Positions 3,007 through 60,394 of a stretch of DNA of 64,000 bases are shown here, piece after piece. The notes beneath the pieces were generated by a model. The model worked only from the letters and a program-made list of their open reading frames with translations. It was not told where the DNA came from and did not search any database. Made by a program: the position numbers and the translations under genes. The stretch covers positions 11,154 through 75,153 of the forward strand of contig JAZTZY010000013.1 of NCBI GenBank assembly GCA_045637705.1, read 5' to 3'. Position 1 is the first letter of the stretch. Each line of letters opens with the position of its first letter. Source of the DNA: Acutalibacteraceae bacterium (lineage in GTDB: Bacteria > Bacillota > Clostridia > Oscillospirales > Acutalibacteraceae).

Positions 3007-3477
3007 GTGCCAAGAAGAGGCCAGATCGCAAAACGTGACGTTTTGCCGGATCCGCTTTACAATTCAAAGCTTGTAACACGTCTTATTAACAGTGTTATGT
3101 ACGATGGTAAAAAAGGTGTCGCTCAGAAAATTGTATACGACGCTTTCGATATCATCAAGGAAAAAACAGGTAAGGAACCCCTCGAGGTTTTCGAAACAGC
3201 AATGGAAAATGTAATGCGCTTGCTCGAAGTTAAGGCTCGCCGTGTAGGTGGTTCAACTTACCAGGTTCCCATGGATGTTCGTCCCGAAAGAAGACAGACA
3301 TTGGGTCTTCGTTGGATCACACTCTACAGCCGTCAGCGTTCAGAAAGAACAATGAAGGAAAGACTTGCCAACGAAATCATTGATGCTACCAACGAAACAG
3401 GTTCAGCATTCAAGAAGCGTGAAGATACCCATAAGATGGCTGAAGCTAACAAAGCTTTCGCACATTTCAGATGGTAA
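3007..3477 (+). CDS. rpsG: 30S ribosomal protein S7
   Basis: GTG start after [36 protein letters not shown]...AFAHFRW. Confidence 0.95.
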
Positions 3478-5706: not shown

Positions 5707-6909
5707 ATGGCAAAAGCAAAATTTGAAAGAACCAAACCCCACGTTAACATTGGTACTATCGGCCACGTTGACCACGGTAAGACAACCCTTACAGCTGCTA
5801 TCACAAAGACACTCGCTATGAAGGGTGGCGCAGACTTCATCGATTACGCTAACATCGATAAGGCTCCCGAAGAAAGAGAAAGAGGTATCACAATCAACAC
5901 AGCTCACGTTGAGTACGAGACAGAAACACGTCACTACGCTCACGTTGACTGCCCCGGCCACGCCGACTACATCAAGAACATGATCACAGGTGCTGCTCAG
6001 ATGGACGGTGCTATCCTTGTTATCGCTTCAACAGACGGCCCCATGGCTCAGACAAAAGAACACCTTCTTCTTGCTCGTCAGGTAGGCGTTCCTTACATCA
6101 TCGTATTCATGAACAAGGTTGACCAGGTTGACGACGAAGAACTTCTTGAACTCGTTGAAATGGAAATCCGTGAAACACTTGACGAATATGAATTCCCCGG
6201 CGATGATACACCCATCATCAAGGGTTCAGCTCTCAAGGCTCTCGAATATGCAGGCGGCGACGTAAGCGCTCCCGAACTTGCTCCCATCTGGGAACTCATG
6301 GATGCAGTTGACAGCTACATCCCCACACCCGATCGTAAGGCAGACCTTCCCTTCCTTATGCCCGTAGAAGACGTATTCACAATCACAGGTCGTGGTACTG
6401 TTGCTACAGGTAGAGTTGAAAGAGGTCAGCTCAAGACAGGTGAAGAACTTGAAATCGTTGGTCTTACTGAAGAAAAGAGAAAGACAGTATGTACTGGTAT
6501 CGAAATGTTCAGAAAGATCCTTGACTACGCAGAGGCAGGCGACAACATCGGTGCTCTTCTTCGTGGTATCCAGAGAACAGAAATTGAACGTGGCCAGGTT
6601 CTTGCTAAGCCCGGTTCAATTCACCCCCACACAAAGTTCCGCGGTCAGGTTTACGTTCTTAATAAGGATGAAGGCGGCCGTCACACACCTTTCTTCAACA
6701 ACTATCGTCCTCAGTTCTACTTCAGAACAACTGACGTTACAGGTACAATTTCACTTCCCGAAGGCGTTGAAATGTGCATGCCTGGTGATAACGTTGAAAT
6801 GGACGTTACACTTATCACAGAAATCGCTATCGAAGAAGGTCTTCGTTTCGCTATCCGTGAAGGTGGCCGTACAGTTGGTTCAGGCGTTGTTACAGCTATC
6901 AACGAATAA
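5707..6909 (+). CDS. tuf: Elongation factor Tu
   Basis: 400 aa. [27 protein letters not shown]. Confidence 0.97.
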
Positions 6910-55995: not shown

Positions 55996-56037
55996 ATACG
56001 AGTCGCTGTGAGAGATAAGTCTCAAACAGAAGATGTG

Positions 56038-56112
56038 GGAGCATAGCTCAGCTGGGAGAGCATCTGCCTTACAAGCAGAGGGTCACAGGTTCGAGCCCTG
56101 TTGTTCCCACCA
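56038..56112 (+). tRNA. tRNA-Val (anticodon TAC)
   Basis: GGGAGCATAGCTCAGCTGGGAGAGC D-arm, anticodon loop CTTACAA, T-arm GGTTCGAGCCC, encoded CCA. Confidence 0.9.
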
Positions 56113-56117
56113 CATAT

Positions 56118-56194
56118 GGCCCGGTAGTTCAGTTGGTTAGAACGCTAGCCTGTCACGCTAGAGGTCGACGGTTCGAGCCCGTTCCGGGTCGCCA
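56118..56194 (+). tRNA. tRNA-Asp (anticodon GTC)
   Basis: GGCCCGGTAGTTCAGTTGGTTAGAAC, anticodon loop CTGTCAC, GGTTCGAGCCC, encoded CCA. Confidence 0.9.
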
Positions 56195-56209
56195 TTTAAA
56201 AGTTAAAAA

Positions 56210-56286
56210 TGCGGATGTAGCTCATCTGGTAGAGCGCCACCTTGCCAAGGTGGAGGTAGCGAGTTCGAGCCTCGTCATCCGCTCCA
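56210..56286 (+). tRNA. tRNA-Gly (anticodon GCC)
   Basis: GCGGATGTAGCTCATCTGGTAGAGC, anticodon loop TTGCCAA, GGTTCGAGTTCG-type T-arm, encoded CCA. Confidence 0.9.
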
Positions 56287-56291
56287 TATAT

Positions 56292-56366
56292 GGTACCATA
56301 GCCAAGCGGTAAGGCCACGGTCTGCAAAACCGTTATGCCCCGGTTCAAATCCGGGTGGTACCTCCA
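56292..56366 (+). tRNA. tRNA-Cys (anticodon GCA)
   Basis: GGTACCATAGCCAAGCGGTAAGGC, anticodon loop CTGCAAA, GGTTCAAATCC T-arm, encoded CCA. Confidence 0.9.
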
Positions 56367-56561: not shown

Positions 56562-57692
56562 TTATGCCTTTTTATGTCTGTTGAAGTACTCGTTTTCTGT
56601 ATCATTTGGAGTTCGGTTTCTGTTAATCTTATGCGGTCTTTTACTATTATAAAATTCTATATATTTATCTATACTTTCTTTAAACTCTTTCTCTGAACGA
56701 TAGTTGTTTCTATAGAGTTCTTCTGCCTTTAATGATTTGAAGAAAGACTCCATAACGGAATTATCATACGGTGTACCGCTTCTTGATAGGGAGCGAATAA
56801 TTCCCAGTGTTTTACAAAACTCAATAAAAGTGCGGGATGTATAATTAGCGCCTCTGTCACTGTGGAAGATTAGTCCTTCTATTGGCATACGATCGTAGTA
56901 TGCTTTGCTAAGAGTTCTCTTGGTTAATTGTGTGCTGTTCTTGCTTGAAATTCCATAGGCGACTACTTTTCTTGCATAAAGGTCAATAATTACACAGATA
57001 TAATATTTTATATTTTTGAGAGAAAAATATGTAACATCACTAACCCAAGCCTGGTTCGGTTCTGTAGCTACAAATCGCTGAGATAATATATTTTCTTTTC
57101 TTTGTTTGTTCATTTCGTAGAGCTTTTTTGATCCACCGCGTATACTGAACCAGCCATTTTCGTGCATAATATCAGCGACCGTCTTTTCGGCAACTACATA
57201 ACCTCGATTTCTGAGTATGGCATTGATTTTAGCTGCACCAAAAATCTGGTTGCTCTCATTAAAAATTTCTTCGATAATAGGAGTTATTTCATTCTTTTTA
57301 CGGGCGTAAGATGTGTTTTCATTTGCATTTCTTAGAATGTGATTGTAATAGCTTCCTTTAGCTACTTTCAGGGCATCACAAAGAAGTGTAATCGAGTAAG
57401 TTTCAGATAAATCTTTGATAACTTCATATCGTTCATGTAGTGGAGCGTTTACAGGGCAAGGAGACATTTGTAAAACCTCTACCATTTTCTCCAACTTTTC
57501 ACACCGCTGTTTTAGGATCCTGACATCTGTCATATTTATCGGTTTTCGTTTTGTTGTATTATCAGTATTTAACCACGAGTACAGGGTGCTTTTAGAAATA
57601 CCTGTATTTTTACAAATACTAGATAATGTTTCGCCTGAACGATACCGTGATACAATTTCCTTTTTCTGTTCTTCTGAATAGTTTTTTCTCAT
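56562..57692 (-). mobile_element. IS3/IS481-superfamily DDE (rve) transposase gene, single uninterrupted 376-aa ORF
   Basis: N-terminal HTH plus leucine-zipper-like region (ISKSTLYSWL...LEKMVEVLQ), and an rve core with D (WVSDVTYF), D (HSDRGANYTS) and E motifs. Element ends not resolved. Confidence 0.75.
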
Positions 57693-57968
57693 ATTGTGAG
57701 CCTCCTAAAAGTTTTTAGACTCAATAATACAACATTTTCTTAAAAAAGTGAACACACTGATACTGCGACACTAACACTAATGCGATTAGTTTTACAAGTT
57801 TTAGACTCGAATTTTTATTTAGTGTGAAAAATCGTGATTAAATAATTGTAGGGGAAAGAGATTTGAATAGTGACAAAAACTAACTAAAAAAAGACTTTAT
57901 CACTTAATATTGAACAATTTACAAATTATGATATAATAAACTTAAATACAACCAAGGAGGTGAAACCA

Positions 57969-59207
57969 ATGGCATACACAGAGCTTATTAAAAACTTTGA
58001 GCGAATCCGTGACTATATGAGAGAGTTTTATGTTTACGGCTTTAAAAGCAGAGATGAATACGACAAAAAGAGTGCCCGTTCCTATGACAATGAACGCCGC
58101 AGAATTGAAAGCTATCTCGGTGAATATATGGGATTCCGTCAGAGCGAAAAGGGCAAGAATGTTTTTCTTTCTATAGACAGCCGTTCGGTTTCACATAATC
58201 CGCTTTACAGTGTGCTTAAATCAAAAAGCTTTACTGACGGTGATATAACTCTGCATTTTATTATATTTGATATTTTGTGTTCACCTGAAGTTACTTTGTC
58301 ACTTTCCGAAATTACAGATAAAATTGACAGCGAATATCTTTCCTGCTTCAGAGAGTCTATGGTGTTTGACGAGTCAACCGTCCGTAAGAAGCTTAAGGAA
58401 TATGTAGAACTCGGACTTGTACTATGCCATAAGGATGGCAAAAAGGTGCTTTATTCAAGAAGTACCGACACTGATATCTCCGAGCTTTGTGATGTTATAT
58501 CTTTTTTCAGCGAGGCGGGACTTTGCGGTGTTGTCGGCAGTTTTCTGCTCGATAAATTTTCTTCGATTGAGGATTGCTTTTCATTCAAGCATCATTACAT
58601 AACCCACGCTCTTGAAAGTGAGGTTCTGTATAAGGTTTTTGATGCGATTTCACAGAAAAGAATTCTCACAGTAACAAACACATCACGCCGTACACAAAAT
58701 GACCGCATAGAAGAAACAGTGCCGCTGAAGGTGCTTATAAGTGTACAGAACGGCAGAAGATATCTTGCCGCGTATTCGATAAGCTACAAGTATTACAAGG
58801 TTTACCGTCTTGACTATCTCAGTGATATAAATATTGGTGAGTTTTACAGTGACTTTGACGAAAGAAGAGAAAATTTCTCTCTGATGCAAAAAAATATGTG
58901 GGGTGTCGTCTGTGATGAAAGACGGCCTCTTGAACATATTGAATTTACTGTACATATTGGTAGGGATGAGGAGTACATTTACCGCAGACTTTTAAGAGAA
59001 AAGCGTTGCGGTACAGTAGAGCGAATTGATGAAATAACTTGCCGTTTCTCTGCTGATGTTTACGACTCAAGTGAGCTTAATCCCTGGATTCGTACCTTTA
59101 TAGGCAGAATTGAAAACATAGAGTATTCCAATAAGCTTTACGAAAACCGATTCAATATGGACTTGCAGGATATGTACCGTCTTTATGGCTTGGGAGGTGA
59201 GGAATAA
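57969..59207 (+). CDS. WYL-domain protein (PafB/PafC-like, with WCX-like C-terminus), first of a pair
   Basis: WYL-type segment VPLKVLISVQNGRRYLAAYSISYKYYKVYRLDYLSDINIGE. C-terminal WCX-like segment (NPWIRTFIGRIENIE). AGGAGG RBS; ATG at 57969. Confidence 0.6.
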   Translation: MAYTELIKNFERIRDYMREFYVYGFKSRDEYDKKSARSYDNERRRIESYLGEYMGFRQSEKGKNVFLSIDSRSVSHNPLYSVLKSKSFTDGDITLHFIIFDILCSPEVTLSLSEITDKIDSEYLSCFRESMVFDESTVRKKLKEYVELGLVLCHKDGKKVLYSRSTDTDISELCDVISFFSEAGLCGVVGSFLLDKFSSIEDCFSFKHHYITHALESEVLYKVFDAISQKRILTVTNTSRRTQNDRIEETVPLKVLISVQNGRRYLAAYSISYKYYKVYRLDYLSDINIGEFYSDFDERRENFSLMQKNMWGVVCDERRPLEHIEFTVHIGRDEEYIYRRLLREKRCGTVERIDEITCRFSADVYDSSELNPWIRTFIGRIENIEYSNKLYENRFNMDLQDMYRLYGLGGEE

Positions 59208-60124
59208 TGCTCTTTCACGAGATTTACGGCTGTTACTATAATGCTGTTGCAGAAATCCTCCATCAGGCTGTGAACGGTGAGCTTACAGAAAAGGAAATGC
59301 ATAAAATCATATCCGAAAAAGCCTTTTCGGAAAGCTTTCTTACCGTAATACCATCACTTAATGACGAAAAATGGCAATTGCTGAAAAAGGATTTATCCAC
59401 ACCGATTAAAAATGAGCCGTCTATGCCGTTGACCGAATTACAAAAGCGATGGCTGAAATCAATAAGCCTTGACCCGAGGGTTAAGCTTTTTGATGCAGAT
59501 TTCAGCTTTCTTGATGATGTGGAGCCTTTGTTCACACCTGATGATTATACTGTTTTTGACAAGTATAACGATGGCGATGATTTTGAAAATGAAAATTATA
59601 TAAATGTTTTTCGCAAACTTATGTATGCCTTGAAAAACAAAAAGAAAGTAAAAATCGGTTATCACGGAGCAAAGGGAACGTTCCGCATTTTTGTAGGTGA
59701 CCCATATAAAATGGAGTATTCCGAAAAGGATGATAAATTCAGAGTTCTTATCCGCTCTTGCAGAAACGGACCGATGTTAAGGGTTGACGGAATAGAAAGT
59801 GTAACCATTATCGGTGATGCTTTTGCCGAAAATACACGGGAAGTGCTTGAAAGTACAGAGCATATAACTTTGGAGCTTCTCGACCACAGAAACGCTCTCG
59901 AAAGAGTAATGCTTCATTTTGCACACTTTAAAAAAGAGGTTGAAAAAATCGGTGATGAAAGATACCGTATAAAGATTTTCTATGACGCTTCTGATGAAAC
60001 AGAGCTTGTTATCAGAGTTTTATCATTCGGGCCTTTTGTTGAAGTAACCGAACCGCAGAATTTCAGAAATCTTATCATAGACCGCCTGAAAAAACAAAAA
60101 AATATTCAAAATAAAGAGTTGTGA
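59207..60124 (+). CDS. WYL-WCX domain protein, second of the pair
   Basis: KVKIGYHGAKGTFRIFVGDPYKMEYSEKDDKFRVLIRSCRNGPMLRVDGIESVTIIGD (WYL pattern) and VIRVLSFGPFVEVTEPQNFRNLI (WCX pattern). TAATG overlap with the upstream gene. Confidence 0.65.
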   Translation: MLFHEIYGCYYNAVAEILHQAVNGELTEKEMHKIISEKAFSESFLTVIPSLNDEKWQLLKKDLSTPIKNEPSMPLTELQKRWLKSISLDPRVKLFDADFSFLDDVEPLFTPDDYTVFDKYNDGDDFENENYINVFRKLMYALKNKKKVKIGYHGAKGTFRIFVGDPYKMEYSEKDDKFRVLIRSCRNGPMLRVDGIESVTIIGDAFAENTREVLESTEHITLELLDHRNALERVMLHFAHFKKEVEKIGDERYRIKIFYDASDETELVIRVLSFGPFVEVTEPQNFRNLIIDRLKKQKNIQNKEL

Positions 60125-60304
60125 GCTTGATTTTCGTCAAGTTCGCAACTTTTTTTCCGTGAAAAAACAGTTTCTGATTGGTAGAATATGGTTGTAAAGT
60201 TGCTTCGGATAGTGTTTGAACTCACTTCGGTGCACGAGGATTTTCCAAAGTGTATGCCTGAAGAACTTTGCGCTTGGCAATCGAGAGAGTCTGTAAAACT
60301 CACG

Positions 60305-60394
60305 GTCGATGAGGTTCAAATCCTCTTTGTGGACTTTTAATCCACCCTTTACGCGGGTTCGAATCCCGCCGTACGTAATTATAACGTATCGCCA
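60305..60394 (+). ncRNA. tRNA-like structured element (candidate tRNA-mimic ncRNA or tRNA remnant)
   Basis: gaggTTCAAATcctc (60311-60325); gtgga-cttttaa-tccac anticodon-arm-like hairpin with a UUU 'anticodon' (60329-60345); gcgggTTCGAATcccgc T-arm (60353-60369); tacgt-aattata-acgta hairpin then cGCCA (60371-60394). No canonical D-arm or 5' acceptor strand. Confidence 0.45.

Follow-up and report, generated by a model that had tools for sequence, protein, structure and literature searches.

The window analyzed here is a stretch of 64,000 nt from an Acutalibacteraceae bacterium, in which an intergenic gap of 541 nt (60125-60665) contains a tRNA-like element at positions 60305-60394. With a probability of roughly 0.9, this element represents a structured RNA of tRNA origin that is functional and belongs to the b7a-tRNA kind. 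According to the account given by Wang et al. (10.1101/312249), b7a-tRNA is a tRNA-like RNA next to Band-7 and RtcB genes that was predicted by Burroughs and Aravind in 2016, "strongly resembles an authentic tRNA" and was still unvalidated by experiment as of 2018. In the window, the element was found to be part of a conserved RNA of approximately 470 nt (about 60194-60665) upstream of a slipin gene, hereafter termed the leader, whose helices covary across the aligned leaders of related genomes. A larger structured RNA had been suspected in a sequence-only reading of this DNA, and this suspicion was confirmed. All features of the window described below lie on the forward strand unless indicated otherwise.

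Relatives of the locus were collected by a slipin alignment search, which yielded 317 genome stretches with relatives, and 80 loci were kept. These are species-level, metagenome-assembled genomes of Oscillospiraceae, Acutalibacteraceae and other Clostridia. The slipin-RtcB leader cassette occurs in hundreds of gut Clostridia and in at least 80 species-level genomes, and the order of WYL gene, WCX gene, RNA, slipin gene and rtcB is kept in essentially every sufficiently long contig of the 80 loci. Subdoligranulum variabile (L086) is one carrier that can be cultivated. The intergenic DNA is 65-80% identical in nearly all loci and the slipin protein 62-70% identical; the flanks of the cassette were found to be unrelated among the three loci scanned.

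For the structural analysis, 42 full leaders were aligned and a consensus was obtained with RNAalifold, using pairing partners slid by 1 to 3 columns as controls. The folding of homologous intergenic regions, which had been proposed as a check on the element, resulted in a covariation-supported structure of 121 pairs in 22 helices. In total, 91.6% of the cells are paired compared to 35-48% in the slid controls, a percentage that is inflated since this alignment also served to derive the structure. Changes on both sides of a pair, which are not easily explained as an artefact of this derivation, were found for 85 pairs (39-51 in the controls) and 590 cells (103-147 in the controls), and the covariation score was 0.357 compared to at most 0.108. 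The leader consists of four parts, namely a 5′ domain, a variable tRNA-derived region, two hairpins with a conserved GAGAACG linker and a long 3′ domain.

Both T-arm motifs reported for the element are present, GAGG-UUCAAAU-CCUC at 60311-60325 and GCGGG-UUCGAAU-CCCGC at 60353-60369. The underlying sequence GGTTCRAWTCC was identified three times in the window, whereas 0.16 occurrences are expected, and the third copy belongs to a genuine tRNA-Cys; the T-arms are not explained by chance. The main T-arm (60353-60369) is paired in 100% of the 42 leaders, with exchanges between CG and UA in 8 sequences and between GC and AU in 2 sequences. The first T-arm-like hairpin (T′, 60311-60325) is present in about one third of the leaders and is 97.5% paired in the 20 leaders of the complex class, with 2 covarying pairs and, in most of them, the loop UUCAACU.

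The leaders can be divided into a minimal and a complex class, the window belonging to the latter. In the minimal class a single hairpin, mostly GAGC-CUGUCAA-GCUC, is located six or seven bases 5′ of the T-arm, and the core is 97.4% paired with 9 pairs showing both-sided changes. The complex class adds a UUGGCAAUC motif, a two-tier arm and the hairpin T′. The motif, in which the GG is unpaired, and the extended arm are found in this class only and span positions 60274-60310. The outer stem of the arm (60280-84 with 60306-10) is 97% paired with 2 covarying pairs, and the inner stem (60287-90 with 60298-301) is 92% paired with covariation in 4 of 4 pairs. The tip loop of the arm (60291-60297, CUGUAAA) varies among the window and the loci L004, L007 and L009, whose leaders are more than 94% identical, between CUGUAAA, CCCAAAA and CUUGAAA, while the stems are unchanged. 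A hammerhead ribozyme was considered for this arm, as some relatives carry CUGAUGAG there, and was rejected, since the window has CGAGAGAG and lacks the GAAA core as judged by eye.

Directly 5′ of the main T-arm, where an anticodon or variable arm would be located, the anticodon-arm-like hairpin with a UUU loop that had been noted before is indeed present at 60329-60345 (GUGGA-CUUUUAA-UCCAC). A homologous hairpin with covarying helices was found in most leaders, the commonest loop being CUGUNAA. On the other side, the T-stem is abutted in the acceptor position by a closed hairpin of 7 bp (60370-60391; loop 60377-83, U60389 bulged), which is 95% paired and shows both-sided changes in 6 of its 7 pairs; the closing hairpin described earlier corresponds to gtacgt/acgtat at its positions 60371-60389. 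It is followed by a mini hairpin at 60392-60403 (CCAG-UGGU-UUGG), which is D-arm-like with GG in the loop and 97% paired. Its changes are one-sided in the 42 leaders, and a separate count revealed a single sequence with a both-sided change, from A-U to G-C. The 3′ GCCA of the sequence-only reading is present as cGCCA at 60390-60394, but it is not a 3′ end: the bases CCAG (60392-95) pair with UUGG (60400-03), so that the GCCA is internal to the conserved mini hairpin and therefore not a terminus.

A covariance model built from the main T-arm through the first of the two further hairpins (R1) has a single match in the window, at 60347-60424 with 82.8 bits and an E-value of 8e-23, and matches 21 loci outside its seed. 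The two further hairpins (60407-10 with 60415-18 and 60432-37 with 60443-48, together 60407-60448) are 88.5% and 83.8% paired with 3 and 4 covarying pairs, respectively; the first reads GCCG/CGGC in the window and GUCC/GGAC in others. Two additional interactions were rejected. A closing helix of the multi-hairpin region, formed by a U-rich strand 5′ of the T-arm and an A-rich strand 3′ of hairpin 5, was seen in single-sequence folds only and not in the consensus, and a kissing contact between the conserved GUGUUUGA and the T-loop offers no covariation to judge by.

The 5′ domain (60194-60271) consists of helices that are 80-100% paired in the alignment of 42 leaders. Helix P1 (60194-99 with 60266-71) and helix P1b (60203-06 with 60260-63) enclose helix P2 (60229-35 with 60250-58) and its inner helix (60238-40 with 60244-46), and a small helix is formed by 60212-14 and 60223-25. 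The covariation is illustrated by GUAAAG/CUUUGC in the window, GCAAG/CUUGC in most relatives and AUGUAAU/AUUACAU in the locus L018, and by GGA/UCC compared to GGC/GCC in 17 sequences. The reported absence of a D-arm was confirmed, the corresponding bases being paired with the 5′ end of the RNA in P1 and P1b. Of the UUCG tetraloop hairpins described upstream of the element, CACUUCGGUG could be located at 60223-60232, but the tetraloop is not conserved: the CAC-UUCG-GUG hairpin overlaps the covarying helix 60229-35/60250-58, and the loop in the relatives is NGCG or CGAG instead of UUCG.

The 3′ domain is a long irregular hairpin (60467-60630) with the helices 60467-76/60621-30, 60507-12/60615-20, 60525-29/60601-05, 60553-58/60576-81 and 60561-64/60569-72. 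Nearly every pair of its long helices covaries, and its internal loops are highly conserved. Between 60504 and 60630, three near-invariant loops were observed in all Clostridial loci, GCCUUGCCYGARAAYGGAUACCGUG, GCCAAAAGA..UCUUUCCGC and CACUCAAGUUUUCRGCCGC. The 3′ domain has the appearance of an independent module for the binding of a ligand or protein. Its core has a length of 124-131 nt in 42 of 42 leaders and ends approximately 36 nt ahead of the start codon. A covariance model of the domain (R2) matched 27 of the 27 held-out Clostridial loci searched, with scores of 35-133 bits. Four loci without the standard T-arm module (L014, L021, L049 and L070) have kept the 3′ domain. Since R2 is found in every Clostridial locus, including these four, no part of the RNA is more constant in the clade than the 3′ domain.

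An additional open reading frame of approximately 220 amino acids without a recognisable family was observed between the 3′ domain and the slipin gene in the loci L010, L038, L044 (3318-3983), L050, L062, L064, L066 and L073. The 3′ domain directly precedes this reading frame in 7 of 7 such loci scanned with R2, out of the 8 that carry it. In the locus L051, two matches to the Gut-1 RNA (RF01706) were found on the reverse strand at 1534-1617 and 3095-3175, with 50.6 and 44.7 bits; one site lies between the WYL and WCX genes and the other between the leader 3′ domain and the slipin gene.

One pairing of the canonical tRNA type is left unexplained by the consensus structure. The sequence-only reading had found no 5′ acceptor strand, which proved incorrect: a 7/7 complement to the strand following the T-arm (60370-76) is located at 60250-56, 103 nt upstream of the T-arm. 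This complementarity was found in 45 of 54 leaders, compared to 0.9% for a random 7-mer. In the minimal class, the acceptor-type strand is 48-53 nt away from the T-arm, which is equal to the spacing in tRNA, and ARAGORN reads the acceptor-type fold as tRNA-Asp or tRNA-His in several relatives. As the functional fold, however, the stem 60250-56/60370-76 was rejected, since its changes are one-sided and wobble-compatible, it crosses P1 and, in 8 of 9 leaders, the covarying alternative is more stable by 5-10 kcal/mol. The complementarity is also not independent evidence, because the two flanking hairpins are alike in sequence. The pairing may be left over from the acceptor stem of an ancestor, or it may possibly act as a switch.

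The comparison with known RNA families separates the leader from tRNA and tmRNA. The Rfam tRNA model (gathering score 29 bits) has no match in the window element or in 7 Clostridial loci and scores just four real tRNAs in the window (56037-56366), in agreement with the earlier statement that the element is not an ordinary tRNA gene. That no cloverleaf can be completed holds for the Rfam model, which gives no match at E ≤ 10, but not for ARAGORN, which forces a "tRNA-Lys ttt" at 60298-60377. This cloverleaf, as read by eye from the sequence, requires an acceptor stem with 5 of 7 pairs and takes the first T-arm as a D-arm, and such odd calls were obtained in a minority of the loci only. A genuine tRNA was therefore rejected. 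The RNA resembles canonical tRNA in the T-arm with the T-loop consensus, the 7-nt anticodon-like loops and the 7/7 acceptor-type complement, whereas it has neither a D-arm nor a CCA and its acceptor-type pairing is the less stable one. The scan with the Rfam tRNA, tmRNA and YrlA models, which had been suggested to classify the element, gave no family match in 60050-60720 at E ≤ 10 apart from a local hit of the T-arm to tmRNA. This hit covers 18 nt with 17.7 bits, compared to a gathering score of 47, and ARAGORN finds no tmRNA, so that tmRNA was rejected as well. The other Rfam families yielded nothing in the same region at E ≤ 10 except chance-level snoRNA and miRNA matches and the T-arm.

Counterparts of the cassette could be identified in Proteobacteria, where full-length slipin homologues with 31% identity were found in E. 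coli, Citrobacter, Burkholderia and Photobacterium. In Burkholderia multivorans, the slipin gene is preceded by a tRNA-like gene with an Rfam tRNA score of 44 bits (gathering score 29) and a 5-nt anticodon loop, which in turn is preceded by an extra T-hairpin. In Photobacterium, two tandem tRNA-like units with Rfam tRNA scores of 54 and 46 bits are located 5′ of the slipin gene. The anticodon loops of these proteobacterial units (L084, L085) are aberrant, with 5-6 nt. The RNAs of Burkholderia and Photobacterium match the published description of b7a-tRNA as far as it is reproduced in 10.1101/312249. The window RNA likewise adjoins an SPFH/Band-7 gene in an RtcB repair neighborhood and has the conserved T-arm; in contrast to that description, it has no complete cloverleaf or D-arm, its acceptor stem is closed by a loop, and up to three serial degenerate units are contained in a covarying RNA of 470 nt with a 5′ domain and a 3′ domain of 127 nt.

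The syntenic spot of E. coli contains a T-arm and a hairpin matched by R1 with 17.8 bits, for which ARAGORN and Rfam call nothing. The R1 matches at the syntenic spots of E. coli and Photobacterium are full-length and weak (approximately 18 bits, with a rough E-value of 0.0004-0.005 depending on the amount searched), and the match in Burkholderia comprises the T-arm only. No match to R2 was obtained in the proteobacterial loci searched, and conservation of the 3′ domain in Proteobacteria was rejected on this basis. The tandem arrangement of the proteobacterial units would account for the two T-arms in the window, and an order resembling that of YrlA would arise when the T-arm of one tandem unit is followed by the D-arm of the next. 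The only match of the YrlA model was the Photobacterium tandem (L085), with 27 bits compared to a gathering score of 69.

The leader and slipin island of E. coli was found in 1632 of 5426 complete genomes (30%), and no RNA is annotated there. It lies between yjbD and lysC (L083, NZ_CP019267.1 4280-7700; also L082) and was observed to contain the T-arm leader, the slipin gene, a gene for the nucleotidyltransferase RlaP and a gene of the zeta-toxin family. Since the partner of the E. coli slipin is RlaP, an RNA-repair nucleotidyltransferase, the invariant neighbor of the RNA is slipin and not the ligase.

In the window, the RNA follows two genes of the same strand that overlap by 1 nt and encode a putative regulator pair. 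The first (57960-59207) encodes a WYL-domain protein of 415 amino acids (Pfam WYL, 23.2 bits) and was found 5′ of the RNA in 63 of 80 loci, the remaining loci being mostly cut contigs. The second (59207-60124) encodes a WCX-domain protein of 305 amino acids (Pfam WCX, 23.7 bits, slightly below the cut-off of 23.9) and is present in 69 of 80 loci. This overlapping arrangement is presumably comparable to that of PafB and PafC. The slipin gene (60666-61769; SPFH/Band-7, 367 amino acids, Pfam Band_7 with 1.8e-29) starts 297 nt past the main T-arm, and no hydrophobic segment was spotted in its product when the sequence was read by eye. Its translation start (60650-60668) consists of the Shine-Dalgarno sequence AGGAGG at 60650-55, a conserved UACAUAU preceding the AUG and the start codon at 60666. 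The rtcB gene (62444-63682; RNA ligase of 412 amino acids, Pfam RtcB with 1.1e-62) lies 3′ of the slipin gene in 69 of 80 loci. Between them, the window contains a DUF2247-like open reading frame (61863-62459; weak Pfam match with an E-value of 0.0012, under the cut-off), a clade-specific insertion found in 7 of 80 loci only.

Upstream of the cassette, an IS3-family transposase gene was observed on the reverse strand (56562-57692) between the tRNA cluster 56037-56366 (Val-Asp-Gly-Cys) and the first WYL gene, which is consistent with the cassette being in a variable region. In the locus L015, a match to group II intron D1-D4 (6446-6670, reverse strand; 34.7 bits, over the gathering score) lies just 3′ of rtcB.

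Upstream of the RNA, a hairpin with a U-run is located downstream of the regulator genes (60113-60166), the hairpin being seen in weak Rfam alignments. No other DNA element of the locus is as highly conserved as the 3′ half of this hairpin with the U-run, AGTTCGCAACTTTTTTTCCGTGAAAAAAC (60138-60166), which represents a putative operator. In about 60 leaders, the motif GTTCGCAGCTTTTTTTCCGTG shows hardly any variation and is followed approximately 22 nt later by TAAAAT; at up to 2 mismatches it occurs once in the window, where 0 occurrences are expected. A promoter-like site (GTGAAA-17 nt-TGnTAGAAT, 60159-60187) was detected by a consensus scan, and the −10 element (TAAAAT/TAGAAT) and its spacing to the operator are conserved among the leaders. 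From the conserved operator motif and the placement of the −10 element, transcription of the RNA probably starts near 60194. No terminator-like site was found in 59900-60800, that is, none between the RNA and the slipin gene.

The operator and −10 element recur in a second, somewhat degenerate copy (CTCGCAACTTTTTTCCGTG ... GGTAAAAT) at 61828-61875, between the slipin gene and the DUF2247-like reading frame; this copy is confined to the clade of the window. Its sequence suggests another WYL-type promoter that arrived with this clade-specific reading frame. The annotated TTG start at 61863 is probably wrong, since it overlaps the −10 element of the second copy.

With respect to function, the RNA is tentatively regarded as a tRNA-mimicking ribonucleoprotein partner of slipin and RtcB, an assignment made by analogy and held at somewhat less than even odds. 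The RNA of approximately 470 nt would be the 5′ part of the slipin-rtcB repair-operon transcript, controlled by the putative WYL/WCX pair. D-arms and open acceptor ends would have disappeared from ancestral tRNA units, leaving a string of hairpins composed of the GG motif with the long arm and the T′ arm, the anticodon-like hairpin with the T-arm, the closed acceptor-like hairpin and the mini D-like hairpin. Folded into tRNA-shaped modules, the RNA may be to an apparently soluble slipin scaffold what Y RNA is to Ro60, namely its RNA subunit. Its tRNA-like surface might bring RtcB and tRNA-type substrates together or compete with tRNAs for nucleases, and the amount of RNA would be coupled to that of the proteins, since it would be made in cis. 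This role is preferred because slipin is the sole neighbor of the RNA that does not change from phylum to phylum; the ligase, the regulator and the anticodon-like loops are all variable. Two observations weigh against it. The 3′ domain, and not the tRNA-like part, is the most constant, and its fixed position before the start codon fits cis-regulation at least as well. In addition, since the form in the window fails both the tRNA and the YrlA models, its homology to the proteobacterial genes is argued from synteny, the T-arm and R1 scores that are weak.

It is also possible, though rather unlikely, that the RNA acts as a sentinel or bait. A toxin would cut the anticodon-like loops, the WYL pair would sense the resulting fragment with a 2′,3′-cyclic phosphate and induce the operon, and RtcB would reseal both tRNAs and bait, by which the signal is turned off. 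The loops themselves point in this direction. Immediately 5′ of the T-arm, 34 loops of 7 nt other than T-loops were counted; 25 of them have the form Y-U-NNN-R-N and 20 carry U-G-U at the equivalents of positions 33-35, with CUGUCAA (9 times), CUGUAAA (4 times), CUGUUAA (twice) and UUGUGAA. The commonest hairpin, GAGCCUGUCAAGCUC, is almost the same as the anticodon arm of the window's own tRNA-Asp, with which it has AGCCUGUCA-GCU in common. In the clade of the window the loop is CUUUUAA or UUUUUAA and thus of the Lys type, which we take to be the anticodon loop of tRNA-Lys(UUU). U-G-U at 33-35 is common to the Asp, Tyr, Asn and His tRNAs (the GUN set); colicin E5-type nucleases target the loops of this set and PrrC-type nucleases that of Lys-UUU, and the resulting ends are joined by RtcB. 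However, the UGU pattern may be heritage of an ancestral tRNA-Asp, since the sequences are related by descent. Furthermore, 18 of 60 leaders have no hairpin with a 7-nt loop at that place, and the proteobacterial b7a-tRNAs carry loops of 5-6 nt.

Precedents for such sensing have been described or proposed. RtcR senses tRNA fragments with cyclic ends (2020, PMC7790460), and WYL transcription factors have been proposed as sensors of cyclic-ended RNA (PMC9503650). In the RtcR system, and presumably also in the cassette, an RtcB operon is under a dedicated, ligand-sensing transcription factor, which makes RtcR a functional analogy for the WYL pair and for the bait model; the cassette differs in having a WYL/WCX pair instead of a sigma-54 CARF activator and a putative signal source in the operon's own leader. 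On the other hand, Salmonella YrlA was uncut by the anticodon nuclease studied (PMC7790460), which argues against a bait.

An unlikely explanation, retained in view of the constant placement of the 3′ domain, is a purely cis-regulatory leader, that is, a riboswitch-like or protein-binding 5′ untranslated region that sets translation or stability of slipin-rtcB, with the T-loops as structural building blocks and the 3′ domain as the sensor. The missing terminator-like site agrees with this, as does the 3′ domain, which is found with its nearly constant length and position in every locus, ahead of the inserted reading frame where one is present, and is kept where the tRNA-like module is lost. 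A short helix can also involve the Shine-Dalgarno region, but its apparent covariation was judged to be a likely alignment shift. In addition, no ligand or anti-Shine-Dalgarno logic could be identified, and the proteobacterial RNA appears as a free-standing tRNA-like gene with its own acceptor stem of 6-7 bp, which suggests an RNA that is trans-acting or processed. More doubtful still is the proposal that the whole leader represents a new class of large structured RNA in which serial degenerate tRNA units and the constant 3′ domain of 127 nt are joined with a built-in sentinel, the bait having been swapped from UGU (Asp/Tyr/Asn/His) to UUU (Lys) in the clade of the window.

The sequence-only reading had offered a Y-RNA or YrlA-type mimic accompanying rtcB as one of two explanations. 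A tRNA-mimicking noncoding RNA accompanying rtcB was indeed found, whereas membership in the YrlA family, with the RNA tethering Ro60 (Rsr) to an effector, is very improbable. YrlA has the order V-T-AS-D (PMC4201824; 10.1101/312249), and the order in the window is the same though the D-like element is much reduced, with a hairpin at 60329-45, the T-arm at 60353-69, the closed hairpin at 60370-91 and the hairpin with GG in the loop at 60392-403. The T-stem GCGGG/CCCGC is nearly the same as GCGGG/CCCGU in Salmonella YrlA (10.1101/312249). Both RNAs are tRNA mimics in an RtcB operon without a free CCA end, and roles as cofactor or competitive inhibitor have been proposed. Nevertheless, the YrlA model RF02553 (gathering score 69 bits) has no match in 60050-60720 at E ≤ 10. 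The YrlA and other bacterial Y RNAs occur with Ro60 (Rsr) in rsr-yrlBA-rtcBA operons (Chen et al., 2014, PMC4201824), whereas the neighbor here is slipin and no match to TROVE was found in the proteins of the window operon or in nine flanking open reading frames scanned (three loci), the search being confined to these parts of the genomes. The stem of the 5′ and 3′ ends that binds Ro60 (GNCGAAN0-1G) does not appear in the consensus structure, for which no formal search was made. Finally, the D-like element has 4 bp and a 4-nt loop, and the RNA is far larger and apparently an mRNA leader, in contrast to YrlA, which is a separate gene of approximately 100 nt.

The second explanation offered, in which an integrating element left the 3′ part of a tRNA-Lys gene behind at its attachment site, is already contradicted and hardly credible: the "tRNA-Lys" call of ARAGORN and the IS3-family transposase 2.6 kb upstream speak for it, but the RNA occupies the same cassette position in 80 genomes with unrelated flanks in the three loci scanned, every hairpin covaries, the T-arm is followed by a covarying hairpin instead of an acceptor strand with CCA, no integrase is adjacent and the RNA pattern is without viral matches. 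A phage origin of the RNA was likewise rejected, since none of the viral contigs searched carries the RNA pattern; slipin has one distant match in a viral contig of 244 kb and no phage record.

The tRNA-like element itself is not new, since b7a-tRNA was predicted in 2016. As far as this can be checked against the 2016 work as described in 10.1101/312249, the new aspects are the degenerate multi-unit form, the covarying RNA of 470 nt, the WYL-linked promoter module and the anticodon-loop pattern. The literature search revealed no account of the extended leader, no Rfam family matches the regions in the window and at the E. coli spot, and RefSeq has no RNA annotated there.

The prediction of a Band-7-associated tRNA-like RNA made in 2016 thus gains support. 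With approximately 470 nt and more than 100 covariation-supported pairs, the Clostridial RNA ranks beside the few large bacterial RNAs of unknown function. The cassette, which unites an operator, a WYL pair, a tRNA mimic and a ligase, may represent RNA-damage sensing and control of RtcB outside the RtcR/CARF system. It would also illustrate an evolutionary route by which tandem tRNA genes turn into permuted tRNA mimics resembling YrlA.

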